A DNA stretch of 64,000 bases from an uncultured Dehalococcoidia bacterium (GCA_964599885.1 CAZRHH010000004.1:9082-73081); one strand, 5' to 3'; counted from the first letter of the stretch, positions 2,690 through 56,403 are shown. A program made the numbers and translations. The notes: a model not told the origin generated them from the sequence alone.

Positions 2690-2718
2690 TTCACCACAGA
2701 GGCACAGAGGCACAGAGG
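2690..2718 (+). repeat. dispersed intergenic repeat TTCACCACAGAGGCACAGAGG (copy 1, 8-bp GGCACAGA unit x3)
   Basis: Direct reading: ttcaccacagaggcacagaggcacagagg. The same motif recurs at 26190, 38146, 48972 and 56370. Confidence 0.85.
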
Positions 2719-2770
2719 ATCGGGTGCGGTCGATCTGGGTTCTCGCTTGCGCGGTCGCTATTCTGCGGCG

Positions 2771-3745
2771 ATGAAGATCATTGCGTCGGAGAAGGTGTCC
2801 CGCGAGTACAGGAAGCGCATGCGCGTTGCCGATCCGGCGGCGGCGCTGATCGTGCCGACGGTGGTGGACGGCGGGCTCGAATGGAAGGGTGACCCGGCAC
2901 GGGCAGACATATGCTGCTTCTCCGAGGACTTCTGGCAAGAGCCCTCGATGCGGCGGCTCGCGCTGCCGGCGATATTTCAGCTCGAATCGTTGCGATGGTT
3001 CCACACGTTCAGCGCGGGTGTCGACTCACCGGCGTTCCAGGTGCTGATCGATCGGGGCACGATCCTCACGAACTCCGCCGGCGCGTCGGCACCATCGATC
3101 GCGCAGCACGTGCTCGCGATGATGCTCTACCGCAGCAAACGCATCGACGAGCTCCGCGAGCAACAGCGTCGCGGTGAATGGGCGCAGATCCGTGGCCTCG
3201 ACCTCACCGGCCAGACGGTCGGCATCATCGGGACGGGCAACATCGGCGGCGAGGTGGCGCGACTGGCGAAGGCGTTCGGCATGCGCGTGATGGGCGCGCG
3301 ACGCTCCGACAAGAAGACGCGTTACGTCGACGAGCAGGTGTCGTTCGGAGGGCTGACGCCGCTGCTGCGCGAGAGCGACTTCGTGGTGCTTGCCTGTCCG
3401 CTCACCGCCGAGACCGAGAACCTGATCGGCGAAGCGGAGCTGCGCGCGATGAAACCCACGGCGACGCTGATCAACGTTGCCCGCGGCCGCGTCGTCGACG
3501 AACTCGCGCTGATCGGCGCGCTGCAGGAGGGCACGATCGCCGGTGCGTGTCTCGATGTCTTCGTGCGCGAGCCGCTGCCCGAGGCCAGCCCGCTCTGGCA
3601 GATGCCCAACGTCGTCATCTCGCCGCATAACTCTGGTATCTCGCCGCTCAACATGGAGCGTGCGATGACGATCTTCGTCGATAACCTTGCGCGCTTCATC
3701 GCCGGCACGCCGCTACGCAATCGGGTGCGCCGCGCCGGCGGGTAG
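2771..3745 (+). CDS. D-isomer-specific 2-hydroxyacid dehydrogenase (NAD-binding)
   Basis: GIIGTGNIGGEVARLAKAFGMRV Rossmann motif and a catalytic RG..VDE...H pattern. Start chosen at MKIIASEKV (ATG at 2771); the alternative start is 2747. Confidence 0.8.
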   Translation: MKIIASEKVSREYRKRMRVADPAAALIVPTVVDGGLEWKGDPARADICCFSEDFWQEPSMRRLALPAIFQLESLRWFHTFSAGVDSPAFQVLIDRGTILTNSAGASAPSIAQHVLAMMLYRSKRIDELREQQRRGEWAQIRGLDLTGQTVGIIGTGNIGGEVARLAKAFGMRVMGARRSDKKTRYVDEQVSFGGLTPLLRESDFVVLACPLTAETENLIGEAELRAMKPTATLINVARGRVVDELALIGALQEGTIAGACLDVFVREPLPEASPLWQMPNVVISPHNSGISPLNMERAMTIFVDNLARFIAGTPLRNRVRRAGG

Positions 3746-3754
3746 TGGCACGAC

Positions 3755-4507
3755 TCACACGGGACGCGCGCCCGGCACGTTGATGATGCTGCCCGTCACG
3801 CGCTCGGCCGCGTCCGAGCAAAAGAAGGACACCACGTCGGCCACGTCCTGCGGCTCGTTCCCATCGCGGCTGATGTTCTCAGCGCCCGCAGCCGCAGCCG
3901 CAGCTTTCGCGTGAGACACGCGGCGCGTCGGCCCCGGCGCGACGGCGTTGATCGTGATGCCGTGCGGCAGTTCAAGCGGCGCCAGCGTGCGCGTGAGCCA
4001 GTGCCGCGCCGCCTTACCGAGGGGATAGTCGAGCGGCGCGTCGGGCGGCCCGAATCGCCAGTCATCGGCCATGTGCCCGCCGATGCTGACGATCCGTCCC
4101 CAGCGCCGCTCGCGCATCCCCGGCAGAACCGCGCGCAGGAGGTAATAGACGCTCTCGATTTCGGCAGCCAGCACGCGCCGAAGATGCGCCGGTTCGATCT
4201 CGGCGATGTCCTGCGGCTTCCACGGACCGCCGACGTTGTTTACGAGAATATCTACCTGCCCGAGCGTCGCGATCGCGGCGGCCGCCATCGCCGAAACGGC
4301 ATCTGGGTCGGTGATGTCGGCCTGCCACACGAGGACGCGGCGCCCGAGCGCCTCAATGGCTGCGCCCGTCTCCCGCGCCCGCTCGTCGCTGCGGCGATAG
4401 TTCAGCACGATGTCGGTGCCATCTCGTGCCAGCGTCAGCGCAATGCTTCGCCCCATGCCCTCGCCGCCCGCGCCCGTCACCAGTGCCACCCGCCCCTGTA
4501 GTGTCAT
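3755..4507 (-). CDS. SDR-family oxidoreductase
   Basis: MTLQGRVALVTGAGGEGMGRSIA... with an NNVG motif. Start ATG at 4507; the longer 327-aa ORF in the track is an upstream extension lacking a protein-like N-terminus. Confidence 0.8.
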   Translation of the reverse strand: MTLQGRVALVTGAGGEGMGRSIALTLARDGTDIVLNYRRSDERARETGAAIEALGRRVLVWQADITDPDAVSAMAAAAIATLGQVDILVNNVGGPWKPQDIAEIEPAHLRRVLAAEIESVYYLLRAVLPGMRERRWGRIVSIGGHMADDWRFGPPDAPLDYPLGKAARHWLTRTLAPLELPHGITINAVAPGPTRRVSHAKAAAAAAGAENISRDGNEPQDVADVVSFFCSDAAERVTGSIINVPGARPV

Positions 4508-4517
4508 ACCGGAGTAT

Positions 4518-4562
4518 AGAAACGGGAAGCGGGAGACGGAAAGCGGGAGACGGGAAGCGGGA
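4518..4562 (+). repeat. GGGAAGCGGGA-type short tandem repeat block
   Basis: agaaacgggaagcgggagacggaaagcgggagacgggaagcggga sits between divergent SDR genes. A related block lies at 853-890 and an inverted copy at 26379-26394. Confidence 0.7.
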
Positions 4563-4631
4563 TGTCGGAGGTCGCGACTCGCACGCTGACCCGATGCCCG
4601 ATACAGTCCGATCTGGAGGGATGTACGGGGA

Positions 4632-5393: not shown

Positions 5394-5481
5394 CGCGGCA
5401 CCCGGCGCGATCACGCGGACACAAGACAAGGGCGCCCGCTCAGGCGCCCCTGCTAATTCTGGTCTGGTTCTGCGCGGCTCC

Positions 5482-9046: not shown

Positions 9047-9986
9047 CTATTCGAGCTTGCCCGCTTCGAGTCCCCACTTCGCGAGAATCTCGTCCACCGT
9101 GCCGTTCTCGCTGATCTCGTCGAACGCCGCCTGCAGGGCGTCGCGCAACGCCGTGCTGCTCTTGCGGATCGCGATGCCATACGGCGCCGGTTCGATCTGG
9201 ACGGGCACCACCATCAGATCGCCATCGCTCTGCTCGGCGGTATACGCCGCTACCGGGAAGTCCGCGATGTTGGCATCCGCCTGCTCCGCCGTCACCGCCA
9301 GCACGGCCTCCGGATCGGTCTGGAACCGCCGTACGGTGATCCCGTCGTTCCCGTCGTCCTGGCATTGCTGGTCGAGACCGCCCGGATCCGCTTCGGTTCC
9401 CAGCAACAGGTCAACGTGTGTCGTGCCCTCCTGAACAGCAACCGTCTTGCCGCAAAGATCCTCCGCAGAGTTGATCCCCGACGGATTGCCGGCGGCCACA
9501 ACGATACCGGCGCCAGAATTGAAGTACTCGACGAAGTCCACCTGCTCCTTGCGCGTCGCACTTGCCGTCATCGCCGACATGATGACGTCGTAACGCTCTG
9601 CATCGAGCGCCGGCAGCAGCCCATCGAACGCGCTGTTGTCGAACGTTGCTTCGACACCCAGCACTTCCGCCAGCGCGTTCGCTATGTCGATGTCCAGACC
9701 CACCGGCTCGTTCGTCGCCTCGTCGAGGAACTCGATCGGCGCGTAGGCGATGTCCGATCCAATGTTCAGCGTGCCGTCGTCGAGTTCCTCGATGTCCGAG
9801 ATGTCGATCTCGCCCGATCCCGCCCCCGGCGTCGATCCGTCCCCTGCCGGACTTGATGCCGACGTTGCCCCCGTCGTCGGTGCGCTGTCCGGATCATCGT
9901 CATCATCGCCGCAGCCGGCCGCGAAGGCCGCCACGGCTAACAATGCGATCGATGCCAGCGTCGCCCGCTGTAGGTATGCGCGCATG
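9047..9986 (-). CDS. amino-acid ABC transporter substrate-binding lipoprotein
   Basis: Lipoprotein signal (LLAVAAFAAGCG) followed by a type-3 SBP fold (DIAYAPIEF...DVIMSAMT). Start taken at MRAYLQR; the ORF extends to 10024. Confidence 0.8.
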
Positions 9987-10351
9987 TGCGTCCCTCCGCT
10001 CCAACTTCGCTCCAACGAGCGCATCCCTGGCGCTCTCCAGAATCATCAGTGCTGGATCGATCGCCGTCAATTCACTCCGCGAAAAGATCGTATGACGCTT
10101 GACAACCCGGGAGGATGTCGACGAGCCGTGTGGGTGGCGAGGCGCGCTAAATGAGCAGCGGGAGACTCCGGTCGATGGGGGTGTTCCAGAGTCACCGCTG
10201 CTCACAACCTGTATCCACGGTGCGCTACCGAAAAGTAACGGGTGTGGAGCCCGGAATCTGCCGTTCGTTGAGCGCTGTCAATGCCAACGTTATTCCGCGC
10301 TCGCCCCATCGGCTGTACGCTCATCCAGTATGACGATCGGACTCAGGAGCA

Positions 10352-26179: not shown

Positions 26180-26189
26180 CGTACGTTGG

Positions 26190-26211
26190 TTTCACCACAG
26201 AGGCACAGAGG
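26190..26211 (+). repeat. TTCACCACAGAGGCACAGAGG repeat (copy 2)
   Basis: ttcaccacagaggcacagagg directly after the peptidase stop. Confidence 0.85.
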
Positions 26212-26255
26212 CGCGGAGCGATCTGCTGGAGGATTTGACGCCTGAGCCTGCTATA

Positions 26256-26290
26256 CCGGGGCGAACACGTAGGTTCGCCCCTACCGCGGT
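26256..26290 (+). repeat. hairpin motif CCGGGGCGAACACGTAGGTTCGCCCCTACCGCGGT (5'-leader-like)
   Basis: Nine-base-pair stem GGGGCGAAC/GTTCGCCCC; a second copy lies at 49999-50032. Both sit about 130-230 nt upstream of a plus-strand gene start and are followed by a CGCTTCCC box. Confidence 0.65.
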
Positions 26291-26414
26291 TATCACCAGG
26301 CATTCCCATCACACGAACGGAGGAGGGCAGGCACTCACGTATGACGGCTGTCGTGAAGTCATCAGGAGGAGCCAATCTCGCCTCCCGCTTCCCACGTCCG
26401 TATGATGATGCGCC

Positions 26415-28846: not shown

Positions 28847-28868
28847 TTGTTCGCTCTGTTTCACCGCA

Positions 28869-28909
28869 AAGACGCAAAGGACGCAAAGGGGCGCAAAGGT
28901 TTGAAGGGT
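28869..28909 (+). repeat. GCAAAGG-unit repeat (left arm of the inverted pair flanking the GxxExxY gene)
   Basis: tttcaccgcaaagacgcaaaggacgcaaaggggcgcaaagg begins with TTCACC like the CACAGAGG family. Confidence 0.8.
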
Positions 28910-28932
28910 AAAGAACCGGAAAGGGAGTCGGG

Positions 28933-29385
28933 ATGGCTGAATCGAAGGAACCCAGGGTAAGCGAGCCCCCGCAGAAGCTCGCGCTAGATGCGAATCGCGT
29001 CTCGAACCTTGTCATCGGCGCGTGTATTGAGGTGCATCGAACACTCGGTCCGGGGTTGCTTGAGTCGGCGTATGAGGAGTGCGTGGCACACGAACTCGAT
29101 CTGCGCGGGATCGCATATGTGCGGCAGCGCCCTTTGCGCGTCGAGTACAAGGGTATCTTCCTTGAGGCGGCGTATCGGTTGGATCTCGTTGTTGCCGATA
29201 ACGTGATCGTCGAACTCAAGGCCGTCGACGCGTTGTTGCCGGTGCATCAGGCGCAGATCCTGACGTACCTGAAACTGACAGGGCTGACGCTCGGTCTGCT
29301 CATCAACTTCAACCTGCCGATCCTCCGTGACGGAATCAAACGCGTCGCCAACCGCCTGCCTGAAAACACAGTCGCGCCAAAGTGA
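28933..29385 (+). CDS. GxxExxY protein (PD-(D/E)xK nuclease-fold family)
   Basis: [14 protein letters not shown] is the GxxExxY signature; 150 aa; bracketed by inverted repeats. Confidence 0.8.
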
Positions 29386-29416
29386 TCCAGCAGGCTAGGA
29401 GTTCTCCCCTCTCGAT

Positions 29417-29456
29417 CCTTTGCGCTCCTTTGCGCTCTTTGCGCCTTTGCGGTGAA
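29417..29456 (-). repeat. GCAAAGG-unit repeat (right arm, inverted orientation)
   Basis: cctttgcgctcctttgcgctctttgcgcctttgcggtgaa is the reverse complement of the left arm at 28869. Confidence 0.8.
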
Positions 29457-29467
29457 CCGGCTGTCGC

Positions 29468-38145: not shown

Positions 38146-38199
38146 TATCACCACAGAGACACAGAGACACAGAGGCACAGAGGCACAGAGTCGCAGAGG
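38146..38199 (+). repeat. TTCACCACAGAG-family repeat (copy 3, extended: 6 octamer units)
   Basis: tatcaccacagagacacagagacacagaggcacagaggcacagagtcgcagagg. Confidence 0.85.
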
Positions 38200-38241
38200 T
38201 TGTTGGATGGGCTTCGCGCGTGACGCGCGTAGAATTACGGC

Positions 38242-38874
38242 ATGCCGCCAAAACTCGTCATCGCCACCACGAATCAGGGGAAGTTGAGGGAGTTTCGCGA
38301 ACTGCTCGATGGCTCCGGCTTTGAGTTGGTGACGCCCGCTGACCTCGGGCGCGAGTGGTCCGTCGAAGAGACGGGGACGACGTTCGAGGCCAATGCCATC
38401 CTGAAGGCGGTGGACGCTGCCCGGGTGTGCGGTCTGCTGGCACTGGCTGATGATTCCGGGCTGGAAGTTGACGCGCTGGGCGGGCGCCCGGGAATCTTCT
38501 CGGCGCGCTATGCTGGTGGGGACCGAACGTCTGATACGCTGACCGAGCGCGAACAGGTGGCCATCCTCCTGGGCGAACTCGCCGGCGTACCAGACGTAAA
38601 GCGCGGCGCCCGATTCCGCTGCGTCATCGCCATCGCCAGGCCGGACGGCGGCGACGTGCAGACGGTGGACGGGGTGTTCGAGGGGCACATCGCGCACGAG
38701 GCGCGGGGCGAGTTCGGGTTTGGCTACGACCCGGTGTTCCTGGTGCCGGAGCTGGGCAAGACGAGCGCCGAACTGCCGGCGCACGAGAAGAATACGATCA
38801 GCCATCGTGGGCAGGCGGCGCTCAAGGCGCGCGAACTGCTGAGGATGATGTCGAGTGACCTTCCAACGATCTAG
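38242..38874 (+). CDS. rdgB: non-canonical purine NTP pyrophosphatase (dITP/XTP; RdgB/Ham1)
   Basis: [14 protein letters not shown]...[19 protein letters not shown](V)F. Confidence 0.9.
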
Positions 38875-39916
38875 CGGCCGACTACCTGACCCCGATACCG
38901 CGATCCCGCTCGTCGAGACGATCGACCGCTCGGGGCGGCCGCTGCGTGATCTGCGGATCTCGGTGACGGACCGCTGCAACTTCCGGTGCCGGTACTGCAT
39001 GCCGCGCGAAGTGTTCGGCGCCGACTTCGCGTTTCTGCCGCGCGCGGAGATCCTGACCTTCGAAGAGATCACGCGGCTGGCGTGCATCTTCGCGGCGCAT
39101 GGCGTGCGCAAGTTCCGGCTGACAGGCGGCGAACCGCTATTGCGTAACGATCTGCCGTCGCTCGTACGCATGCTGTCGCAGATCGCGGACGTCGACATCG
39201 CGCTGACGACGAACGGATCGCTGCTCGCGCAGCAGGCGCGCGATCTGAAGGCGGCGGGATTGCAGCGCATCACCGTCAGTCTGGACTCGCTCGATGACGG
39301 CGTGTTCCGCGAGATGAACGATGCGGACTTCGACGTGGCGCGCGTGCTCGAAGGCATCGATGCGGCCGCGGCGGCCGGACTGGCGCCGGTAAAGATTAAC
39401 GCCGTCATCCGTCGGGGCGTGAACGATCACACGGCCGTCGACCTTGCGCGGCACTTCAAGCGCAGCGGTCACATTGTTCGCTTCATTGAGTACATGGATG
39501 TCGGCGCCACGAACGGCTGGCGGCTCGACGACGTGGTCCCCGGCGACGAACTTGTGCGGATGATCGGCGCCGAGATGCCGCTTATGCCCGCCGAAGCGCA
39601 GTATCGAGGCGAGGTGGCGCAGCGCTGGCGTTATGTCGATGGCAGCGGCGAGATCGGGCTGATCACTTCGGTCACGCAGCCGTTCTGCGGCGATTGCACG
39701 CGCGCGCGGCTCTCCGCGGACGGCTCGCTGTATACGTGCCTCTTTGCCACGTCCGGGACGGATCTGCGCGGTCCGATCCGTGCCGGAGTGACGGACGAAG
39801 TCCTCGCCAGTATCGTCGGCGGCGTCTGGAACCGGCGCGACGACCGCTATTCGGAGTTGCGCGCCGAGTCGGCGGCGCCGCCACAGCGCATCGAGATGTC
39901 GTACATCGGCGGGTAG
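38855..39916 (+). CDS. moaA: GTP 3',8-cyclase (radical SAM)
   Basis: [14 protein letters not shown] (CxxxCxxC) and C-terminal MoaA Cys cluster. The start is uncertain; it overlaps the rdgB 3' end by up to 20 nt. Confidence 0.85.
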
Positions 39917-39925
39917 ACTGCTGCC

Positions 39926-40429
39926 ATGACGACAGAGTCCGACGAGGCATTCGGCAAACTCAGCCATATCGATGACGCGACGGGCCGCGCGCGCATGGTC
40001 GACGTCTCCGCGAAGGCCGACACAACGCGCGAAGCGACGGCGCGCGGCCGCATCGTCATGCGTCCCGAGACTCTCGCGCTGATCCGGCGCGAAGGCATGC
40101 CGAAGGGCGACGTCCTAGCCGTGGCGCAGATCGCGGGCATGATGGCGGCGAAGCGCACGCACGAACTCGTGCCGATGTGCCATCCCCTCCTGCTCACCGG
40201 CATCGAGGTGCGGCTGGAGCCGAACGTCGCGCGCCACTGCATCGAGATCGAGGCGACCGTGCGCACGACCGGTAAGACCGGCGTCGAGATGGAAGCGCTG
40301 ACTGCCGTGAGCGTCGCCGCGCTCACCGTCTACGACATGTGCAAAGCAGTAGACCGCGCGATGAAGATCGAGAACGTGCGGCTCGTGCGCAAGTCCGGCG
40401 GCAAGAGCGGAGCGATCACGCTGGAATAG
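39926..40429 (+). CDS. moaC: cyclic pyranopterin monophosphate synthase
   Basis: [14 protein letters not shown]...[24 protein letters not shown]. Confidence 0.9.
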
Positions 40430-40576
40430 CCGTCCAAACCAAGTTCTAGCGCCCTCCAGCTTCCATCCTCCACCTTCTAGTGTTCCCATCGGGCACGCAC
40501 GACCTGACGGGGGCGGGCTTGTCATCAGGCGATCGCGGTGGCACGATACGGGCGGCGGGGAGCGAAAGGTGAGTAC

Positions 40577-41143
40577 ATGACGACCGATGCTATACCGTCC
40601 GACGAAGGGGCTGCGGAGAACGAGCGCGTGCCGTTTCCGCTGCAGGGTGACGAGCGGGTGATCCAGCTTGTCCGCAAGCACTGGCTGTTTCTCTGGCCGC
40701 GCGCTGTGTTGATGGTGCTGTTCGCGCTCGTGCCGGTGACGGTGATCGCGTTCGCGCTGTCGTGGGCTGACCAGTACGACGGGATCGTCGCGAAGATCTT
40801 CTGGGTCGTCGCTGGGCTGTGGATGCTGTACTGGTTCGCGCGCATCCTGCTCAACTGGTACCGCTATCACAACGACATCTGGGTGATCACGAACCAGCGC
40901 ATCGTCGACAGCATCAAGACAACGCCGTTCAATCACCGGTTGTCGACGGCGGACCTCGTCAACGTGCAGGACATGACGGTCGAGCGCAGCGGCATCCTGC
41001 ACACGATGTTCAACTACGGCGACATCATCTGCCAGACCGCATCGACCGGCGGCGACTTCACGCTCGTCGGCATCCCGCGCCCGGACGAAGTGCAGTTGCT
41101 CGTGGACAAGGAGCGCGATCGGGAGCGCATGCGGGGGCGCTGA
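40577..41143 (+). CDS. PH-domain (bPH_2/YdbT-like) membrane protein
   Basis: Two TM helices followed by a bacterial PH domain (NDIWVITNQRIVD). The 3' end is duplicated at 43136. Confidence 0.6.
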   Translation: MTTDAIPSDEGAAENERVPFPLQGDERVIQLVRKHWLFLWPRAVLMVLFALVPVTVIAFALSWADQYDGIVAKIFWVVAGLWMLYWFARILLNWYRYHNDIWVITNQRIVDSIKTTPFNHRLSTADLVNVQDMTVERSGILHTMFNYGDIICQTASTGGDFTLVGIPRPDEVQLLVDKERDRERMRGR

Positions 41144-41152
41144 GCGGAAGGC
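41090..41152 (+). repeat. direct repeat DR-L (3' end of the PH-domain gene including its stop)
   Basis: gtgcagttgctcgtggacaaggagcgcgatcgggagcgcatgcgggggcgctgagcggaaggc. About 85% identical to 43136-43198, with mostly synonymous differences. Confidence 0.8.
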
Positions 41153-41325
41153 GCGCCGTTGTTTGTTCAGCGCACATCGCCACTCAGCCGGGCAAGCACC
41201 AGGCCAGTCCGACACGGGACGGTCGTCGATGGTGCGTATCTTGATCGGACGCTCCATGTCATTGGATCGGCGAACCTTAGTGTGTCCGACCTGACTATTA
41301 GCGGAGGCTACGGGACATTCGACCC

Positions 41326-42960
41326 ATGACGCTTCCTGACTTGATGTGGGCTGCTCAGGGGATAGCACTCGTCGCGATCTTGATCACATGGCGCGGCCGG
41401 TTCGTTGTGCCGGCCGTTTTTGTGGCCGCGCTGGCCATTCTTGTTCTGCACGGTTACGTGTACTGGGATCACATCTCCGACGATGCATTCATTTCCTTCC
41501 GTTACTCTCAGAACCTCGCGCGCGGAGACGGACTCGTATGGAATCCTGACGAACGGGTTGAGGGATACTCGAATTTCCTCTGGGTGATCCTCCTGACGGG
41601 CACGGAGCTCTTGAGGATAGGCATCGTTGAACCATCGCGCTGGCTCGGCTTCGCTTCGACAGCTGGCGTCCTGGCCATAATCTATTTACTCGCCCAAGAG
41701 TTGACAGCATCCCGCCGGGATGCGGAAATCGCGTTCACGATCACGGCGCTGTTATTGGCTATCAGCGCGCCGGTTGCGATGTGGACGTTCGCTGGATTGG
41801 AGGAGCCGCTCTTTTCATTCCTAGTTGTGTCCGCCTTGTATTTGCACGTACGGGAAGTGCGCGCGGACTACAATCGGCCGTTTCAACTTTCGGCGGTAGT
41901 GTGCTTACTCGCTCTGTTGACCCGGCCCGACGGTTTTATCCTTGTGGGTGTTATCGGAGTACTCAAATGCTTCGAGTTGGTTGCCAAGTCACCTGACCGA
42001 CCAAAGTTCACGCAGTTCGCGTCATGGCTGCTTGCGATCGCGGTTCCCTTTGGGTGCTTCATCGCCTGGAGACTCTGGTACTACGACGATGTGCTACCGA
42101 ACACATTTTATCAAAAGCTCGACGGACGCGGTCTGTTCAATCGGGCCAGGATGGAAGACGGCTATCTCTACATCCGGCGGTTTTGGCGTGAGTATGGACT
42201 CGTTCTGATATTCCCCATTCCCTTCTTAAGCTTGCTTATCTCGGCTAAGCGGAAGGTCACTGCGAGCATCCTGCTGTTTTGCACCACATGGATGACCTAC
42301 GTGCTCATGATTGGCGGGGACTTCATGTGGTTCTTTCGATTCCTAGTGCCCGTGTATCCATTGCTGCTGCTCCTATCCGCTCATTTGCTCGTCGTGTGCT
42401 ACAGGCGGATATCGCCGCGGGTGCCCAAGGCTTCTGCGATTCTCGTTTGTGCCGCCTTCATGCTTGTGGCCATCACGATTATGCATGTGCCTGAGAAGGC
42501 CGTAGATGCGAATAATTTTGCTCTCGCCTCGCACCTGCACCGCAGAGAGATCGCTGTCTGGCTTCGTTCTCAGGACGAGCGCACAGTCGTCGCTGTAACC
42601 GCGGCGGGACAGGTTCCGTACGAGAGCCAGCTTCCGTCTATCGACATGCTGGGCCTCACGGACCGGCACATTGCGCGACAGCCTCCGTACCCGGGGAAAG
42701 GAGTGCCCGGGCACACGAAGGGCGACGCTCGCTATGTCCTGGACCTGCGTCCCGATGTGATCATGTACGGCTCTTTTCTTCAGTTCGAGGTCTGGACATT
42801 GACTTACTGGCAGAACTTGATTCCCTTCCTACCAGCCTATCGAGATCTATTTGAGCAACCGGATCTTTGGGAGTTGTACGAGCCAGCCTCGGTAAGGCTC
42901 GAACATGGCTACTTCAACTTCCTCAAACTTAAGAGCACGACCAGACTACGAATCCCATAA
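41326..42960 (+). CDS. GT-C-fold membrane glycosyltransferase (ArnT/PMT/arabinofuranosyltransferase-like)
   Basis: 544 aa, about 12 TM segments, DDAFISFRY acidic motif in the first periplasmic loop. Markedly lower GC than its flanks. Confidence 0.6.
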   Translation: MTLPDLMWAAQGIALVAILITWRGRFVVPAVFVAALAILVLHGYVYWDHISDDAFISFRYSQNLARGDGLVWNPDERVEGYSNFLWVILLTGTELLRIGIVEPSRWLGFASTAGVLAIIYLLAQELTASRRDAEIAFTITALLLAISAPVAMWTFAGLEEPLFSFLVVSALYLHVREVRADYNRPFQLSAVVCLLALLTRPDGFILVGVIGVLKCFELVAKSPDRPKFTQFASWLLAIAVPFGCFIAWRLWYYDDVLPNTFYQKLDGRGLFNRARMEDGYLYIRRFWREYGLVLIFPIPFLSLLISAKRKVTASILLFCTTWMTYVLMIGGDFMWFFRFLVPVYPLLLLLSAHLLVVCYRRISPRVPKASAILVCAAFMLVAITIMHVPEKAVDANNFALASHLHRREIAVWLRSQDERTVVAVTAAGQVPYESQLPSIDMLGLTDRHIARQPPYPGKGVPGHTKGDARYVLDLRPDVIMYGSFLQFEVWTLTYWQNLIPFLPAYRDLFEQPDLWELYEPASVRLEHGYFNFLKLKSTTRLRIP

Positions 42961-43135
42961 CTCCGGGTGCCAGCAAGGAAAGGCGACTCCATTCCTGGGA
43001 AAGGGTCCCCATCGCATCGACTGGGCAAAGGGGTAGGGACTGAAGGCTGCAATCGCAAAGGTCATGGGAGACAGGATTGCACGAGGCAATTTCAATGGCT
43101 ACTTCGCCGCCGTCGCGCGCTGCTGCGGCCCAGCG

Positions 43136-43198
43136 GTGCAGCTGCTGGTGGATAGGGAGCGCGATCGGGAGCGGACCCGGGGGCGGTGAGGGGAAGGC
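43136..43198 (+). repeat. direct repeat DR-R (relic copy of the PH-domain gene 3' end with preserved frame and stop)
   Basis: gtgcagctgctggtggatagggagcgcgatcgggagcggacccgggggcggtgaggggaaggc translates VQLLVDRERDRERTRGR*, versus VQLLVDKERDRERMRGR* in the intact gene. Confidence 0.8.
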
Positions 43199-43264
43199 CG
43201 ACGGATTGCGCGGGTCGGGTGGATGCGCTGCAACCTGAACGAATGCGGCACACCCGGTGGTGCG

Positions 43265-46003
43265 TCAGGCGGCGTCGGGTTGAGCGCGTTCCCGCTCGAA
43301 GAGCTTCGTGATGTCTTGGGGCTGCATGGGCTTGGCGAAGAGGAAGCCCTGACCCAGCTCGCAGTCCAAAGCTTGCAACCTGGACAGCTGGGCTCCTCGC
43401 TCGATGCCTTCGGCGACAACTTCGAGGTCGAGCGTCTTGCCGAGCTCAATGATCGCCCTGGCGATCTCCTTCTGGTTGACGCTCGTACCCAGGTCGTCGA
43501 TGAACGACTTGTCGATCTTCAGGAAGTCGAACGGGAACTGCCGGAGGTAGCTCAATGATGAGTAACCGGTGCCAAAGTCATCGATCGCGAGACCAACACC
43601 CAGTTCCTTGAGCTCCCGCAGGCGGACCAGCATCAGGTTGACGTCATACATCATGACGCTCTCGGTGATCTCCAGGATGAGCCGGCGCGGTTCCAGGCCC
43701 GTCTCGGCCAGCACGGTGCGCACGTCTTCAACGAAGGACGGTGCGTCGAGCTGTTTGGCGGAAACATTCACGCTCATCGTCCAGACTGGGTTGGACGGGA
43801 ACTGCTGCTGCCACTGAAACGCCTGCGCGCACGCCTGCCGGAGGATCCAGAGCCCCAGCGGGAGGATTGCGCCCGACTCCTCGGCGAGCGGGATGAACTC
43901 CTGGGGTGGCACCAACCCTCTCCGCGGGTGCTGCCATCGCACCAGCGCCTCGACGCCGTAGAGTTCGCCCTGCTTCAGCAGAAAGATCGGCTGGTAGTGA
44001 AGGACGAACTCTTCTCGCTCCACAGCGCGCGGGAGATCGGCCAGTAGTTCCAGGCGCTCGCTAAGCGACGTCTCCATGCTCAACTCGAACACCCGGTAGC
44101 AGCCCTTGCCGTGCGCTTTCGCGACGTACATCGCGATGTCGGCACGCCGAAGGAGCGTCTCCGCCTCCAGTTCCTGCGGCTGCTGCTCGGTCATCGCGAT
44201 GCCGAGGCTCGCGCGCACGAGAAGTTCCTTCGCGTCGACGTCAAACGACCGGGCGAGCGATTCGAGTACGCGATCCGCGACAGCGGTCGCATCCTCCACC
44301 GAGTCGATGTCTTCGAGCAGAATCGCGAACTCGTCTCCGCCAAGGCGCGCCAGCGTGTCGGCGGGCCGCAGACAACCGGTCACGCGCTCGCCCACCTGCG
44401 CCAGCACCAGGTCACCCGACGTGTGCCCGAACCTGTCGTTGATACTCTTGAAATCGTCCAGGTCCAGAAAGAGCACGGCCACCTGCGTACGTGACCGCGA
44501 CCGTCGCGCCAGCGCGTGATCCAGCCGATCGGCGAATCCGGTGCGGTTCGCAAGCCGCGTCAGCGGATCGTGCAAGGTCTGGTGTCGGAGCTGGTCCTCG
44601 AGTCGTTTTCGCTCGGTCATGTCGCGGACGTTGAGTACGAGCCCGCCGATCGCCGGGTTCGCACATTGGTCGCTGCCGGTGAACTCCAGATAACGCCAGA
44701 TCCCGTCGCTGTCGCGCAGGCGCCCTTCACCTGTGATCGTGCCCGCCGGCTTCATCATCAAGTCCCCAAGGGTCGCGACGAACTGGGCGCGGTCGTCTGG
44801 ATGTACGAAGTCGACGAGCTTTGCGGCGACAACCTGATCCGGATCGTAGCCGAGCACGCGCCGCACGGCGGGGCTCTGGTAGAGCACTGTCGTATCCGGA
44901 CTGATGACTGTGATCAGATCGGACGCGTTCTGCACGAGCGACCGAAATCGCTCTTCGCTGCGCCAGCGTTCGGTGATGTCGTGGATGATGAATACCGTCC
45001 CGACCCACTCACCAAGGTGGTCGAGCAGCTTCGAGCTCGACAGGATGGCGGCGCGCAACGATCCGTCGCTGCCCTCGTGGATCACCTCCAGCTCATGCTC
45101 GCCCTCGGGATCGCGCAGTCGCTCGAGCGCACCATCGCCCCAGCGCTGATCCAGCTCATCGAGTGACGTGCCCACCATGCTGCGACTCATTCCCCACACC
45201 GCTTGAGCCGACTCGTTCGCTACGCGCACCGTACCGTCTCGGTCGGTCACCAGCAGACCCTCCGCCATCGTGTCAATGATCTGCCGCGCCGCGAGGGCTG
45301 GCGTGATGTCGATGATGCGGTATCGCCAAATGTAGTACGTCGCGATCGCGACATAACCCAAAATGAAGATGTACCCGAAGGGATACACGCCGATGTGCAT
45401 TGCTGCCAGAAAGTCGACCGTGGCCGGCAGGGCCACGGCCAGCGCCACAAGCCGCAGCCGCATGCGCTTCTTGTGCGTGACGGACTGTGTCGCCTGCTGC
45501 CCCATCCGATAGAGCACGCCGCCGCCGACGAAGAACAGCCCGTAATAGGGAATGAGGAACTTCCCGGCGGGACCGTAGATCGGGTAGTAGCCCCAGAAGT
45601 ATTCGTGGATTCCGCTCAGCAACAGATCGGAGCCCAATGCAAGCGCCGCGAACACACTCGAGACGGCGAGCCCGATGATGATGCCCGCACGCATCGCGCG
45701 GAGCTTTGAACTCCCGTTCGCAGCATGTATGAATGCAAACACAGGGACGAACACCGTCCCGACCATGGAGATCTTCACCCAGACGAGCGCGACGTCGGGG
45801 TCGTGCGTGGAATTGGCGCCGCCGAGGCCCATCAGCCAGACGCCGATTGGCAACGTCATCAACAGCAGCGTTACGCTCTGAGTGGACCCGCGCTCACGTC
45901 TCCACGTGCCGAGACCGAACACCCAGTTCAGGGCGCCCACAACGATGACAGGTACGGCGTACCAGCTAAAGAAGTAAGCGGAGGGGTCCAGGAACTCGTT
46001 CAT
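43265..46003 (-). CDS. membrane sensor diguanylate cyclase/phosphodiesterase (multi-TM N-terminal domain, PAS domains, GGDEF, EAL)
   Basis: 912 aa; RLGGDEFAILL (GGDEF); EALVRW (EAL); PAS-like blocks; hydrophobic N-terminus of ~280 aa. Confidence 0.9.
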   Translation of the reverse strand: MNEFLDPSAYFFSWYAVPVIVVGALNWVFGLGTWRRERGSTQSVTLLLMTLPIGVWLMGLGGANSTHDPDVALVWVKISMVGTVFVPVFAFIHAANGSSKLRAMRAGIIIGLAVSSVFAALALGSDLLLSGIHEYFWGYYPIYGPAGKFLIPYYGLFFVGGGVLYRMGQQATQSVTHKKRMRLRLVALAVALPATVDFLAAMHIGVYPFGYIFILGYVAIATYYIWRYRIIDITPALAARQIIDTMAEGLLVTDRDGTVRVANESAQAVWGMSRSMVGTSLDELDQRWGDGALERLRDPEGEHELEVIHEGSDGSLRAAILSSSKLLDHLGEWVGTVFIIHDITERWRSEERFRSLVQNASDLITVISPDTTVLYQSPAVRRVLGYDPDQVVAAKLVDFVHPDDRAQFVATLGDLMMKPAGTITGEGRLRDSDGIWRYLEFTGSDQCANPAIGGLVLNVRDMTERKRLEDQLRHQTLHDPLTRLANRTGFADRLDHALARRSRSRTQVAVLFLDLDDFKSINDRFGHTSGDLVLAQVGERVTGCLRPADTLARLGGDEFAILLEDIDSVEDATAVADRVLESLARSFDVDAKELLVRASLGIAMTEQQPQELEAETLLRRADIAMYVAKAHGKGCYRVFELSMETSLSERLELLADLPRAVEREEFVLHYQPIFLLKQGELYGVEALVRWQHPRRGLVPPQEFIPLAEESGAILPLGLWILRQACAQAFQWQQQFPSNPVWTMSVNVSAKQLDAPSFVEDVRTVLAETGLEPRRLILEITESVMMYDVNLMLVRLRELKELGVGLAIDDFGTGYSSLSYLRQFPFDFLKIDKSFIDDLGTSVNQKEIARAIIELGKTLDLEVVAEGIERGAQLSRLQALDCELGQGFLFAKPMQPQDITKLFERERAQPDAA

Positions 46004-46302
46004 CGGCGGCTGACCTCGGCAGTCCGAACGTCAACTGACCCGCAAAGGCTCGGCTGCGGGTCAGGGTCAGTCAGGCACATGCCGAACGAGTATCGACCGA
46101 ACGGAGCACCGAATGAAGGGGCGGTCAGGTATCTGAATAGTCAGAAGAGTGCAGTTCCGACTCGATCAGCTCACCACCGTCGTTCACGCTTGCCGGGACA
46201 AAGAACGCGATCGCGAGCGGACTCGGGGCCGGTGATCGATCCGAGATTGGGGCGGGCTTTCGGCACTGGAGGGTGGAGACTGGACGGTTGACCTCCGCTC
46301 CT

Positions 46303-46941
46303 TCAGTCCACCGAGCGCCAAGCTAAACCCACATGGATGCCGTGTCCGATCGAGTCGTCGATTTGTCGATGCAGCGTGAGGGCTACAATCCGATCGTCGG
46401 AAACGTTGTAAGGATTTCTGACATCCGGCTCCCCAAGAACCGGCCCCATCGCATCGCCGGTGGGTTTCCACAACATCACCCAATTGCGGGTGGGAGAGCA
46501 TCGCCACGTGAGATCCACCTCGACTGGCCCGGGCGGGAGCTGGGTGTGCACCCGCGTAAGCGCCAGCCGGATGCGTTCCTTCCATGCCTTCTGGGTCGAT
46601 CCGCTGCCTGCATCTACGACCGCTTGAACCCACGAATCGGCCAAACTTTCGACAGCCGGCTCGGCGCGACCGATTGAGACTTCCGAGCCACCGCCGACGC
46701 GTTTTATCGCGCGAACCATCACGAAGCGGCGCCAGCCCAAATGACTCACTATGGGCGTGAGGTAATTTTCGAGGTCGTGGTGCCTGAGCAGGCGGCTCGG
46801 ATCGAGAACGTCGACGACAAGATCGAGGTAAAGCTGTTCACCCTCGGGAATGTCATCCATGAGCAAGAGCTCACGCAACCCCAGGAGATACGCCCGCATG
46901 CGCACTTGGGAAGGATGGTCCTGCCGCTCCCATGTTGCCAA
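46303..46941 (-). CDS. hypothetical protein (212 aa) immediately downstream of dnaN
   Basis: Lower-GC ORF. The segment LDLVVDVLDPSRLLRHHDLENYL...FVMVRAIKRVGGG loosely recalls the RusA resolvase core but lacks its acidic catalytic pair. Confidence 0.45.
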   Translation of the reverse strand: MATWERQDHPSQVRMRAYLLGLRELLLMDDIPEGEQLYLDLVVDVLDPSRLLRHHDLENYLTPIVSHLGWRRFVMVRAIKRVGGGSEVSIGRAEPAVESLADSWVQAVVDAGSGSTQKAWKERIRLALTRVHTQLPPGPVEVDLTWRCSPTRNWVMLWKPTGDAMGPVLGEPDVRNPYNVSDDRIVALTLHRQIDDSIGHGIHVGLAWRSVD

Positions 46942-47038
46942 GAGCGGCGAAATCCCGGTGTGGCTACAGTAGGTGGCGCCGAACTCCCAACGCTGGGGCA
47001 GCGGAGCGGTGTCCGAGTTCCACGAAGTGTCTAGCCAG

Positions 47039-48172
47039 CTACCACTGCACGAACATGGGCATCACGACGTGGACGTAGTTGTCGGATTCGAGTGGGCGGA
47101 TGACGGCGGGTTGTGACGGGCCCGTCGTTTCGAGGGCGACGCGGCCACCGTCGAGCACCTGCAGCACTTCTTGCAGATACTTGCCGTTCAGGGCGATCTT
47201 CGACGGCTCGCCTTCGACGACGGCGTCGAGCTCGCCCTGGTTGTCGCCGATCTCTTCGGCGCGGGCCGACAGCGCCATGTGTCCGGGCGTTCCGTCTTCG
47301 CCGGCTTCGAACGTGATGCGGACGATGCCGCTGCCGTCACGCGCGAAGATCGACGCGATCTTCGTCTCCTGCAGGAAGTCGCGCACTTCGACGACGGCGC
47401 GGCTGCCCCATTCTTTCGGCAGCAGGCGGCTGTAGTCGGGGAACGTGCCCTGGATGAGCTGCGCGACGAGCTCGACATCCTTCAGCCGGAACAGCACCTG
47501 CGTCTTCGTGGCGTTGAACGTCATCGTGACGGGCTCTTCCTGATCCTGGAGCAGGCGGTTCAACTCGCCGAGCGCCTTCGCCGGGACGATCACTTCTTGC
47601 TTCTCCGGCGCCTTCTTCTTGAGCTTGAGGTGGCGCACCGCGAGCCGGAACCCGTCGGTGGCGGCGAACGTCAGCTGATCGTTCTCGACGACGAGATGCA
47701 CGCCGGTGAGTACCGGCCGCGAGTCGTCGGTGGCGGCGGAGAAGACGACCTGCGTAGTCGCCTCGCGCAGCGCCTTGGGATCGATTTCGAGCGATCCGCC
47801 GTCTTCGACAGCCGGGATCGCCGGGAAGTCGTCGGCATCGATGCCGCCGATCGTGGCCTCGTTGCGCGCGCATTTCACCTTGAGCTGCTTCGAGCGGGCG
47901 GGCAGCGTGAACTCGATTTTTTCAGACGGAAGCGAGTTTACGAAGTCCGTCAGCAGGCGCGCGGGGACTGTGATGGCCCCCTCTTCTTCTATCTGGCCGC
48001 CGATCCAGCAGCTCAGCGCGATGTCGAGATTCGTCGCCGCCAGCTTGATGCGGCCATGCTCCGTCGTGATCAGCACGTTCGCCGTAATCGGCAGCGTGCT
48101 GCGCAGCGCGACCGCGCGACCGACGATTCCGAGACCTCGCGCGAGGTTCTCCTGTAGACACGTAACCTTCAT
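47039..48172 (-). CDS. dnaN: DNA polymerase III beta sliding clamp
   Basis: MKVTCLQENLARGLGIVGRAV...; three-domain ~377-aa clamp. ATG at 48172. Confidence 0.9.
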   Translation of the reverse strand: MKVTCLQENLARGLGIVGRAVALRSTLPITANVLITTEHGRIKLAATNLDIALSCWIGGQIEEEGAITVPARLLTDFVNSLPSEKIEFTLPARSKQLKVKCARNEATIGGIDADDFPAIPAVEDGGSLEIDPKALREATTQVVFSAATDDSRPVLTGVHLVVENDQLTFAATDGFRLAVRHLKLKKKAPEKQEVIVPAKALGELNRLLQDQEEPVTMTFNATKTQVLFRLKDVELVAQLIQGTFPDYSRLLPKEWGSRAVVEVRDFLQETKIASIFARDGSGIVRITFEAGEDGTPGHMALSARAEEIGDNQGELDAVVEGEPSKIALNGKYLQEVLQVLDGGRVALETTGPSQPAVIRPLESDNYVHVVMPMFVQW

Positions 48173-48461
48173 AGCGCTCACCTGTGTAACCATATTACGC
48201 GGAGTATAAGACAGCCCTCAGGAAGCGACAATAGATCAACGCGCATGATCATTTTCTTATGGATAGTAGGTTGTTCTTCGCTTCGCCGGGGCAGCGCAGC
48301 GTCTGCTGTCGCATCCGCTGCTTTCTGAAAAGGTGTTTTTCGGGGGACACCCCCGCGCCCCCGGCAGGCGCTGCGCCCTGCACCCGCCGCGGCTGGTCGC
48401 TGGTCACTGGTGGGTGATCGGTGATCGGTGAAGCATGGCACGGGACGGCGAGGAGCACGAC

Positions 48462-48969: not shown

Positions 48970-48971
48970 TT

Positions 48972-49000
48972 TTCACCACAGGGGCACAGAGGCACAGAGG
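48972..49000 (+). repeat. TTCACCACAGAG-family repeat (copy 4)
   Basis: ttcaccacaggggcacagaggcacagagg. Confidence 0.85.
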
Positions 49001-49198
49001 ATTCATTTGGATGGGAAGGGCGATCTCGCTGAATTCGAGCCTTGCGATGACCGAGGAGGACGAACCTAAAGGTTCTTCGTGCGTTGATGGTGCAGGAATT
49101 CGGCGGTTGCGCCTGCCCGACCGGGACGGACCTGAAGGTTCGTCCCTACCTCGATGCGGGGCGCCCGACCTCTCACTCCCCACCTCTCACCGTCCCAA

Positions 49199-53735: not shown

Positions 53736-53865
53736 AGGCCATTGTAGAGCGAACGCCGCCGTCGGCGCAGAGGCCCCCGCGGGGGCCTCTGCGGGAGCCG
53801 CTGATATACTCCCGACGCTTTGACGTGACATTCGGGAGCCGTCGAAGCCAGGGAAGGGCGACAAG

Positions 53866-55008: not shown

Positions 55009-55040
55009 CGTGCCGAATCCCGGAGCTGGCGGCGAAACGC

Positions 55041-55616
55041 TTAGCTGGCGCCGCTGCACGTCGTCTCAACGTAGGGCGGGATGCCGGGGACGCCCCTGCT
55101 GCGCGTGCAGGTGCGCGAGCGGATATCGACGATCAGGTCACCGTTCTCGTTGATGCGCGTGCCGAAGCGATCGAGATCGCGATCGCCCGCGCCGTAAGCG
55201 AGCACGCCGTCGGCGCGCCAAACGGCGCGCGCGCCTTCGCAGAGTTCGACGAGCGCGCCGCGGAATCCTTCAAGCTGATCGAGCGTGCCAAGATTCGCGC
55301 GTTCGTCGAACGTGACGCGGCAGTTGCTATCGAGTTCCTGCTGTTTCGGTGACTTGTCGTAGAGCGCGATGAAGGAGCCGTCCGCGAGCCGCGTGATGAA
55401 GATGTGCTGCGACGGCCCGGTGACGTCACTGCGGGCGTACTGCTCCGCCGTGCCGGCGTTATAGCCGCGCTGCGGCTGATTCGCATCTTCTCCCTGATCG
55501 AAGGCCAGGCCGATGGCGAAGAACAGCGCGACCAGCACGGCTAGCGCAATCAACGCCTTACCGAGACAGCCGATGCTACGCCGCTTCTTCTTTGCCGGCG
55601 GTGGCGCCTCAGTCAT
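55041..55616 (-). CDS. membrane-anchored hypothetical protein
   Basis: KKKRR followed by one TM helix, then a ~150-aa periplasmic domain with four Cys. Overlaps the upstream enoyl-CoA hydratase gene by 4 nt. Confidence 0.5.
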   Translation of the reverse strand: MTEAPPPAKKKRRSIGCLGKALIALAVLVALFFAIGLAFDQGEDANQPQRGYNAGTAEQYARSDVTGPSQHIFITRLADGSFIALYDKSPKQQELDSNCRVTFDERANLGTLDQLEGFRGALVELCEGARAVWRADGVLAYGAGDRDLDRFGTRINENGDLIVDIRSRTCTRSRGVPGIPPYVETTCSGAS

Positions 55617-56344
55617 GCGCGATCGCCATCGAGCCGCGCCGCGATCATGGATTCGAGGTGCAGCGCCGCTTCGAGCGGGAGCTCCGCACCGCGCGTCATC
55701 GCTTCCTTCGCGGCCCGGAGCGCTGGCTGGGGCAGCAGCGCCAGCCGCGCGGCGACCGCGGCCGCTTCGTCATGCAGGCGTGCGTGTGGCACAACGCGCG
55801 TCACCAGCCCGATCGCGAGCGCCCGCTGCGCATCGATCGGCTCGCCGGTGAGGATCATCTCGCGGGCGACGCCAGGGGGGATCGTGCGCGGCAGGGTCTG
55901 CGTGCCGCCGGCTGAGGGGATGTAGCCAAGCGCCACCTCCGGCAGCGCGAAGGTGGCGTCGTCGGACGCGATGCGTATGTCGCAGCAAAGGCTGAGCTCG
56001 CAGCCGGCGCCGAACGCGTAGCCGTGGATCGCGGCGACGAGCGGCTTCGTGATCGAGAGCATCAGCCCCCAGATGTCGCGCTCGTACCGTGCGCGCCGGG
56101 CTTCGGCGTACGACGGCGCCGTGCCGAACTCGCTGATATCGGCGCCGGCCGAGAACGCACGGTGGCCGACGCCCTCGAACACGGCAACGTAGATGTCAGG
56201 ATCGTCGCGGACGGCTTCCAGCGCCGACGATAGCTCGTCGCGCATCGCCATGTTGGCGGCGTTCAGCACGTCGGGGCGGTTCAGCGTCAGCCAGGCGACG
56301 CCGGCGTCGGTCTTTTCGAACAGCAGGGGCGCGGGTTCGCTCAC
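55613..56344 (-). CDS. enoyl-CoA hydratase/isomerase family protein
   Basis: Crotonase fold; oxyanion-hole motifs (FSAGADI, GYAFGAGCEL). Confidence 0.85.
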   Translation of the reverse strand: MSEPAPLLFEKTDAGVAWLTLNRPDVLNAANMAMRDELSSALEAVRDDPDIYVAVFEGVGHRAFSAGADISEFGTAPSYAEARRARYERDIWGLMLSITKPLVAAIHGYAFGAGCELSLCCDIRIASDDATFALPEVALGYIPSAGGTQTLPRTIPPGVAREMILTGEPIDAQRALAIGLVTRVVPHARLHDEAAAVAARLALLPQPALRAAKEAMTRGAELPLEAALHLESMIAARLDGDRA

Positions 56345-56369
56345 GGATGCAGCGTAGCTAGACTGGACG

Positions 56370-56403
56370 GTTCACCACAGAGGCACAGAGGGGCAGAAGG
56401 GGA
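56370..56403 (+). repeat. TTCACCACAGAG-family repeat (copy 5)
   Basis: ttcaccacagaggcacagaggggcagaagggga. Confidence 0.85.

Follow-up and report, generated by a model that had tools for sequence, protein, structure and literature searches.

What are the short arrays of tandem octamers that recur between the genes of a 64,000-nt stretch of DNA from an uncultured Dehalococcoidia bacterium (GCA_964599885.1 CAZRHH010000004.1:9082-73081), a stretch that is called the window below, always at its full length? Each array consists of a TTCACC anchor followed by two to six tandem CACAGAGG octamers. A reading of the sequence alone had recorded five copies, likened them to the short tandemly repeated repetitive (STRR) elements of cyanobacteria, and proposed either a small non-autonomous element or a structured RNA or terminator module specific to this lineage. 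We find that the five copies belong to a widespread family of inverted repeats, in which they represent the recognised state of solo arms, and that the complete form of the family, two inverted arms around a small GxxExxY gene, also stands in the window. With a probability of roughly 0.6, we read the five copies as solo arms that are remnants of a selfish minigene cassette, resembling repetitive extragenic palindromes (REPs) and their paired form (REPINs) or the miniature transposable elements with inverted repeats that are known as MITEs.

Identification of five solo arms in the window

Both strands of the window were searched for the 21-mer TTCACCACAGAGGCACAGAGG with up to 3 mismatches. Five matches were obtained, all on the plus strand (c1 to c5, Table 1), and 100 dinucleotide-preserving shuffles gave 0 matches. 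The pattern search confirms the earlier count of five, with three of the earlier positions (26190, 38146, and 56370) off by one. Tandem Repeats Finder assigned a period of 8 and 3.0, 2.1, 5.9, 3.0, and 2.0 copies to c1-c5, which bears out the description of TTCACC plus two to six octamers, and identical 21-mers are present at unlinked sites. All five copies have the structure by which arms are defined, an anchor (T)TCACC and at least two tandem 8-9-nt units of the form C-R-C-N-R-A-G-N, and they score 15-22.5 bits with a position weight matrix (PWM) built from 74 cassette arms. The earlier statement that all copies share one strand is true within the window. No CTCTGTG.CTCTGTG match occurs on its plus strand, so there is no minus-strand copy of this flavour; the sole minus-strand arm in the PWM scan is the right arm of the related cassette, at 29456.

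The genes, mapped by third-position GC and by Pfam, are of the ordinary housekeeping kind, and about 86% of the window is coding. All five copies and both cassette arms lie in spacers, and this placement of seven arms is far from chance expectation. With every copy intergenic and none in the shuffles, the motif is not a compositional artefact equally frequent inside coding sequence.

None of the five copies has an inverted partner within 800 nt, as judged by local alignment, folding of both strands, and the PWM. Degenerate right arms seen by eye near c2, c3, c4, and c5 were not above chance (0.24-1.2 expected per 290 positions), and the PWM score of one such candidate beside c4 (49075-49096) was not significant. 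A single arm alone does not fold, with z from -1 to +1.1 where the folded stretch holds no neighbouring hairpin. The fold of c1-c4 is no better than that of shuffled sequence, save for a neighbouring REP-like hairpin at c2, and the fold signal at c5 comes from a neighbouring GC hairpin. No relevant Rfam match was found, at the gathering or at a permissive threshold, for the window or for 15 hairpin loci, and the window yielded no tRNA. Lacking an inverted partner, a fold beyond shuffles, and an Rfam family, the window copies give no support to the structured RNA or terminator module that had been proposed. They are solo arms.

A complete cassette around a GxxExxY gene

The complete cassette consists of two inverted arms around a gene of about 130 aa, whose product is a GxxExxY protein (PDDEXK_3, PD-(D/E)XK nuclease fold). 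One such cassette, missing from the sequence-only reading, occupies 28860-29456 of the window between a 2-hydroxyacid dehydrogenase gene and a TsaB-like gene; tblastn with an arm-linked GxxExxY open reading frame (ORF) from the family scan located the window homologue at 29011-29352. The arms, TTCACCGCAAAGACGCAAAGGACGCAAAGGGGCGCAAAGG and an inverted copy ending in ...CCTTTGCGGTGAA, form a 45-nt inverted repeat with 87% complementarity. They have the anchor and unit design of the five solos and a different unit flavour.

The association of arms and gene was assessed in an unbiased sample of 80 metagenome loci chosen by the GxxExxY protein only, of which 75 had usable flanks. Significant inverted arms surround the GxxExxY ORF in 61 of these 75 loci (81%). 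Nearly all of the sampled arms combine a TTCACC/TTAACC-type anchor with tandem units, in flavours such as CACAGAG, CGCAGAG, CACGGAG, CGCGGAG, CGCCGAG, CACGAAG, CGCAAAG, and others. Among loci selected by their arms, all five further GxxExxY genes are likewise bracketed, and the hairpin of locus L084 encloses a truncated, decayed GxxExxY remnant.

The search for relatives with GxxExxY/PF13366 gave at least 7999 candidates with E <= 1e-10 among the 8000 scored, and many of their contigs are about 1 kb long. A short-read contig of the same organism (L001, corresponding to window 38152-48313) starts inside arm c3; together, this contig and the GxxExxY contigs of about 1 kb suggest that short-read assemblies are broken by arms. 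Invariant residues of the protein include the GxxExxY motif and a D...ExK triad. No significant Foldseek match was obtained with an AlphaFold model, no solved relative was found by sequence, PADLOC returned faint Cas4 matches only (E = 0.04-0.07), and PHROGs returned no match. Literature searches on GxxExxY, PDDEXK_3, and PF13366 yielded passing mentions only, including an account of PDDEXK_3 as a family of unknown function with multiple horizontal transfers between divisions (Steczkiewicz et al. 2012, PMC3424549).

Table 1 Solo arms and GxxExxY cassette of the window
Feature	Position	Strand	Description
Solo arm c1	2690..2718	+	TTCACC and 3 ACAGAGGC-type octamers
Solo arm c2	26191..26218	+	TTCACC, 2 perfect octamers and 1 CGCGGAG unit
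Solo arm c3	38147..38199	+	ATCACC and about 6 octamers
Solo arm c4	48972..49000	+	TTCACC and 3 octamers
Solo arm c5	56371..56391	+	TTCACC and 2 octamers, then degenerate units and a strong GC hairpin (about 56410-56440)
Cassette left arm	28860..28904	+	TTCACC and 4 GCAAAG-flavour units; 13 nt past the 2-hydroxyacid dehydrogenase stop
GxxExxY / PDDEXK_3 gene	28933..29385	+	150 aa; TIGR04256 E = 1e-43; PF13366 E = 3e-43
Cassette right arm	29412..29456	-	ends ...CCTTTGCGGTGAA; 11 nt before the ATG of the TsaB-like gene

Gain and loss of arms in related genomes

Protein searches assign the window to a Chloroflexota/Dehalococcoidia metagenome-assembled genome, and the comparison with sister genomes that had been suggested for the repeats revealed polymorphism. 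c3 is absent from the syntenic relatives L125/L126 and from L124. A relative that keeps the order GDSL lipase-RdgB-MoaA (RdgB 75% identical) holds no arm in the corresponding spacer and none in 20 kb, and a 90% relative lacks the arm as well. In the spacer between the S41 peptidase and LysA genes, the window holds c2, L326 holds a differently flavoured arm 2 nt past the same stop, and L321, L323, and L324 hold no arm. As individual copies, those of the window are lineage-specific.

The spacer between 2-hydroxyacid dehydrogenase and TsaB occurs in three states. It contains a full cassette with CGCAAAG arms in the window and a full cassette with CGCAGAG arms in L326, whose protein is 62% identical. 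In L323 the left arm stands there as the solo TTCACCGCGGAGACGCGGACCCGCAGAGA, and its left junction matches that of L326; in L321 the spacer measures 13 nt, which may be a further-reduced relic. With a full cassette, a lone left arm, or almost nothing in a single orthologous spacer, these comparisons are direct evidence that solos originate from cassettes by loss of the gene and the other arm, and that close relatives gain and lose the elements. It follows that the solos are either decay products of the element or insertions of it. The earlier proposal of a small non-autonomous element agrees with these results: the copies are dispersed, non-coding, and probably non-autonomous, they are intergenic with 0 expected by chance, and they are polymorphic in relatives.

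The same region is rearranged in L319 and L325, where the block from LysA to 2-hydroxyacid dehydrogenase is inverted with respect to the window. Both inversion breakpoints fall in arm-bearing spacers (window 26164-26420, with c2, and 28844-29463, with the cassette), and L319 keeps a small asymmetric hairpin at the new TsaB-LysA junction.

Distribution and states of the arm family

A scan of one genome per species found the 19-mer TCACCACAGAGRCACAGAG in at least 120 genome stretches among the matches listed. These include Acidobacteriota (many of them Pyrinomonadaceae), Planctomycetota, Chloroflexota, and Thermodesulfobacteriota, and further Alpha-, Beta-, and Gammaproteobacteria, Elusimicrobia, Gemmatimonadales, SAR324, and one Methanotrichaceae archaeon. 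IMG/VR viral contigs contributed 109 more stretches; several contigs carry four to six copies, and single viral contigs hold arms in both orientations. With this spread over many phyla, one archaeon, and viral contigs, the arm is not the lineage-specific sequence that had been supposed.

In the genome loci and the window, 235 arrays were recognised, 181 of them preceded by a TCAC anchor. The commonest state, seen 72 times with loops of 4-630 nt, is a convergent inverted pair whose outer ends are TTCACC and GGTGAA. Divergent pairs (15) are typical of Pyrinomonadaceae, and true solos as well as tandem same-orientation arms of different unit types also occur. Loops have a median of 76 nt over 174 distinct convergent pairs, and 88% of them are shorter than 200 nt; an ORF-less hairpin or a solo is far commoner than arms around a GxxExxY gene. 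Long loops were also inspected for other cargo, but the candidates there proved to be ordinary genes of the host or of phages between independent arms. Nested hairpins and tandem same-orientation arms of mixed flavour were observed in L034 (450-2000), L039, L009, and L101, accompanied in L034 by long AAGAA-rich tracts.

Concerted evolution of the arms and their position relative to genes

The two arms of a cassette were compared in 37 cassettes aligned over the anchor and two units per side, with at least 13/20 arm matches required. Positions A4 C5 C6, C8, A11 G12, C14, C16, A19 G20, and their partners are invariant. The variable positions co-vary between arms; at one of them, 21 cassettes have A-U, 15 have G-C, and 1 has G-U. 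Paired cells make up 92% of the total; the selection for arm similarity (at least 13/20) inflates this percentage but not the agreement in flavour. Double-change cells number 80, versus 30 in shuffles, and slid controls collapse. Pairing is poorest at the outer three anchor positions. Flavour follows protein similarity hardly at all, with a mean identity of 0.644 for same-flavour and 0.619 for different-flavour pairs. In the orthologous cassettes L132/L133, whose proteins are 90% identical, the first unit differs in both arms, and in L178, L182, and L201 a unit position has likewise changed in both arms. Since flavour changes hit both arms in these loci, the two arms of a cassette evolve in concert. 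The element ends between TTC and ACC on the left and between GGT and GAA on the right, with an A-rich left and a T-rich right outer flank.

The neighbouring genes were mapped around 42 cassettes in which both arms are present. In 35/37 cases, the gene downstream has the orientation of the cassette ORF, and in 22/31 the gene upstream does. The gaps from stop codon to left arm and from right arm to start codon are mostly 0-30 nt, and TGA abuts TTCACC in several cassettes. Intact cassettes occupy short spacers, where host transcription crosses them in the sense direction.

The window solos also keep close to genes, each of the five having its anchor within 3-31 nt of a stop or start codon. Most copies had been placed just past stop codons; this is the case for three of the five, c1-c3, which follow plus-strand genes, and the other two lie near the start codons of minus-strand genes. 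c1 is 31 nt past the stop of a DUF58/VWA gene and 29-54 nt upstream of a 2-hydroxyacid dehydrogenase gene, c2 is 11 nt past the stop of an S41 peptidase gene, and c3 follows a GDSL lipase stop by 13 nt, with the RdgB/Ham1 start 43 nt further on; each lies upstream of the next plus-strand gene. c4 and c5 are both located between minus-strand genes. The TTCACC end of c4 is 3 nt from the start codon of a GNAT gene, and the copy reads on the minus strand as ...CCCCTGTGGTGAA, AAA, and then the probable TTG start; c4 is 199 nt downstream of the stop of an SDR gene. c5 lies between the enoyl-CoA hydratase start (56344) and the stop of an aldehyde:ferredoxin oxidoreductase (AFOR) gene (56461), its TTCACC end 26 nt from the hydratase start codon. 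The hairpin directly after c5, AGAGGGCGCCC-AACC-GGGCGCCCTCT at 56410-56440, is strong (fold z = -5.8); it probably either terminates the AFOR gene or belongs to the element as a degenerate part.

For five of five copies on one strand, the two-sided p is 0.0625, and a strand bias is unproven. All five are on the plus strand because c1-c3 are left-type arms behind plus-strand genes and c4-c5 are right-type arms before minus-strand genes; their common strand is most likely chance. One orientation had been noted whatever the direction of the flanking genes; as a strand rule, this is not supported by solos elsewhere, whose orientation is random relative both to the flanking genes and to local GC skew. 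In genome loci, solos (A) have the flanks '<A<' in 15 cases, '>A>' in 14, '<A>' in 12, and '>A<' in 9, with no preference; in viral loci, '<A<' is seen in 25 cases, '>A>' in 44, '<A>' in 34, and '>A<' in 6, and the depletion of convergent contexts is the only effect there. Against local GC skew, solo strands divide 29:23 in 53 solo loci of other genomes, which is not significant. Solos lie with the anchor end closer to a gene boundary, at a median of 33-42 nt, and with the distal end farther away, at 87-110 nt.

A possible role of the arms in host RNA

The main rival to a selfish cassette is a host-level RNA module. Paired arms would then form a transcript stem, which would either be cut, e.g. 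by RNase III as in rRNA intervening sequences, or hide its Shine-Dalgarno-like GGUGA end until a ribosome terminating at the upstream stop melts its base, which would keep operon expression or translational coupling intact; solos would be single-stranded, purine-rich or pyrimidine-rich elements of untranslated regions. Such a module fits the geometry, since cassettes stand between co-directional genes with the left arm 0-30 nt past a stop and the right arm 1-30 nt before a start, and the cassette ORF is co-oriented with the downstream gene as described above. Arm complementarity is kept by compensatory changes, and c4 places GGTGA 4 nt before its probable TTG start. TTCACC and GGTGAA also resemble the 16S 3' end and its complement.

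The module nevertheless lacks wobble asymmetry and a consistent Shine-Dalgarno spacing, and we consider it doubtful. No RNA-stem signature was found on the ORF sense strand, where mismatches are G.U-compatible in 22 cases, A.C in 18, and transversions in 38; unoriented hairpins gave 80, 57, and 83, respectively, with no asymmetry. The distance from GGTGA to the start codon ranges from 1 to >30 nt and many genes have their own Shine-Dalgarno sequence; as a Shine-Dalgarno of downstream genes in general, GGTGA was rejected for spacings too scattered. The weak pairing of the outer three anchor positions speaks against the module as well. Solos present the purine strand and the pyrimidine strand in mRNA about equally (14 vs 15), and those of the window have neither a significant fold nor an Rfam family.

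A probable selfish cassette and the evidence against it

The proposed selfish cassette may be outlined as follows. The family would be a selfish, horizontally spreading minigene cassette accompanied by non-autonomous hairpins and solos, in the manner of REP/REPIN-RAYT or IS/MITE systems. The cassette would have no promoter of its own and would be expressed by read-through from host genes. Complementarity of the arms would be preserved in the DNA itself, either through concerted evolution or through template switching, and the encoded nuclease would act on the arms to move or copy the element. The five window solos are most likely inert remnants, and solos themselves are probably without dedicated function; local side effects are possible, e.g. 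through the GGTGA of c4 4 nt before a start codon.

Several observations weigh against the selfish cassette. No target-site duplication of 2-5 nt was found at offsets 0-5 in 218 pairs, and no recent copies with identical flanks were seen, so that mobility is inferred only. We know of no transposase-like activity of GxxExxY proteins, and the AlphaFold model, made from 36 sequences, is of moderate quality (predicted local distance difference test 70) and indicates no specific function. The co-orientation of cassettes with their downstream genes could reflect a host-level role instead, and the pairing percentage is inflated by selection, as stated above. Viral contigs contain few GxxExxY genes despite many arms, which implies that arms can persist or spread without the gene in cis. 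In the window, no decayed GxxExxY gene was found beside the solos, and the five solos share the flavour CACAGAGG while the sole cassette has CGCAAAG; on both counts, a burst of solo or hairpin copies is needed to explain them.

A wider proposal is offered tentatively. GxxExxY genes and TTCACC-octamer arms may together constitute a previously unrecognised mobile or self-propagating minigene cassette with hairpin ends, which would make no target-site duplication and use its nuclease on the arms. Such a cassette could have spread over bacterial phyla as well as over archaea and phages, and hairpins without an ORF as well as solos, thousands of them, would have been seeded by it in genomes. It would be a functional counterpart of the REP/RAYT system built on an unrelated enzyme.

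Other explanations

Three further readings are weak. A first possibility, that the arms are binding sites of a nucleoid-associated or global regulator (IHF/HU type), follows what was suggested for the paired TCTCCGTS repeats in Geobacter metallireducens and is in our view improbable. Those TCTCCGTS[Y] sites were annotated as putative IHF sites by Aklujkar et al. (2009, PMC2700814), although this proposal is a guess, and the paper states that correspondence to any IHF/HU protein is unknown. Four invariant positions per octamer (C.C..AG.) do fit sequence-specific recognition by some protein. To our knowledge, the octamer does not resemble the IHF consensus, and regulator binding gives no account of the cross-phylum identity, the phage contigs, the single bracketed gene family, or the rapid gain and loss.

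Equally improbable is a replication-oriented polar sequence, similar to Chi or the FtsK-orienting polar sequences (KOPS), or a replication-coupled single-strand insertion. The five solos and the cassette left arm are all on the plus strand, which is G-rich over 24-64 kb, and the absence of target-site duplications is shared with single-strand transposons. The strand bias, however, reaches p = 0.06 only, the solos of other genomes do not follow GC skew, and both orientations occur within single viral contigs. Chi and KOPS, unlike these arms, are not confined to intergenic DNA or often paired. STRR-like repeats from local slippage, or a compositional artefact, hardly deserve consideration: the unit copy number does vary from 2 to 6 and unrelated purine-rich heptamer arrays also occur in the window, but the TTCACC anchor is fixed, identical 21-mers stand at unlinked sites with 0 expected by shuffling, all copies are intergenic, and the arm extends across phyla and brackets a specific gene family.

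Relation to known elements

A full-text literature search on the repeat sequences returned nothing relevant, and the specific family is almost undescribed, yet it is a familiar kind of element. The closest precedent comes from G. metallireducens, for which Aklujkar et al. (2009, PMC2700814), in the part of their paper on these sites, describe sites that each consist of three tandem TCTCCGTS[Y] units, with 21 pairs and a single 'vestigial unpaired' site. The members of a pair occupy opposite strands, a variable distance apart, in the spacers that separate adjacent genes, and the sites are said to be unique to that genome. The unit TCTCCGTS, read as its reverse complement, is CACGGAGA, a flavour of many cassettes here; the window copies differ from it at one unit position and are unpaired. 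The G. metallireducens sites very probably belong to the same family, judged on the unit only, with the TTCACC anchor unconfirmed. That part of the paper concerns one genome and reports no anchor, GxxExxY link, or wider distribution (PMC2700814).

The features of the better-known systems compared here are general knowledge. REP/REPIN elements and their RAYT gene, reportedly treated by Nunvar in 2010 and by Bertels and Rainey in 2011, share with this family the intergenic singlets and inverted hairpin doublets, the many copies at gene ends, the absence of target-site duplications, and an associated gene that is itself flanked by two inverted copies. They differ in that the arm here is an anchor with tandem octamers and not a small GTAG-headed palindrome, and that the gene has a PD-(D/E)XK fold and not that of a Y1 transposase; the protein is unrelated and the arrangement analogous. 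The GxxExxY gene is moreover multi-copy with its own arms for each copy, and the arm is near-identical across phyla, whereas REPs are species-specific. MITEs such as the Correia elements or Neisseria miniature insertion sequences (NEMIS) resemble the family, though not the window solos, in having inverted repeats around a short non-coding core. They also share its gene-adjacent insertion, co-transcription, RNA hairpins, and autonomous, non-autonomous, and solo forms; here, by contrast, there is no target-site duplication and no DDE transposase, the arms are tandem octamers, and the host range is enormous.

Cyanobacterial STRRs are alike in their short tandem units in intergenic DNA and in occurring as several families per genome. 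The resemblance suggested earlier goes no further: STRRs are heptamers without an anchor or inverted pairs around a gene and are limited to certain (heterocystous) cyanobacteria, whereas the arms have a period of 8 and a fixed TTCACC anchor, are usually inverted pairs, and occur here in Chloroflexota/Dehalococcoidia. In 23S rRNA intervening sequences with a small ORF and in integron attC cassettes, a small promoter-less gene likewise lies within an imperfect palindrome or a long stem and relies on transcription from outside, but the present elements are not in rRNA and have no attC R/L box (GTTRRRY), integrase, or attI array.

For the window alone, the finding is modest. If our reading is right, a very large protein family of unknown function gains a concrete, testable context. 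About four in five GxxExxY genes inside arms, together with many gene-less arms, point to a new enzyme-repeat partnership of the REP/RAYT type. The reading would also account for common spurious ORFs and assembly breaks in soil and sediment metagenomes, and it would give a new meaning to the 'IHF sites' of G. metallireducens. The arms would serve as markers of recent genome rearrangement, as in the inversion with both breakpoints in arm-bearing spacers.

Other repeats and sequence features of the window

Three REP-like GC hairpins, at 925-957, 26256-26284, and 49122-49149, end in ...CCCTAC (GTAG on the minus strand) and have one orientation. The latter two sit 38 and 122 nt after c2 and c4, and the neighbourhood of an arm and a GTAGGGGCG-hairpin recurs in loci L006, L023, L114, and L116. 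The dnaN gene is on the minus strand (47039-48193) with no adjacent dnaA and with a GNAT gene and an SDR gene upstream instead. The cumulative GC skew of the window has its minimum near 16-24 kb.

Boxes resembling -10 elements lie 6-8 nt before start codons, TAGAAT before RdgB (38225-38244) and TATGAT before LysA (26395-26417), and they are kept as TATACT or TTAGAAT in relatives (L124, L321, L323, L324, L325). These boxes suggest leaderless mRNAs. Three copies of GGGAGTTCGTTTCG(C/T)A occur at 58750-58850, in the spacer upstream of the minus-strand AFOR gene. Purine-rich heptamer arrays, (GGGAAGC)n, lie in spacers at 835-900 and 4519-4580, and the relative L321 carries long complementary arrays upstream of LysA (9794-10000; CCTCCAA x8, CGCTTCC x4). 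These heptamer arrays are a second, STRR-like class of repeats in the source lineage.

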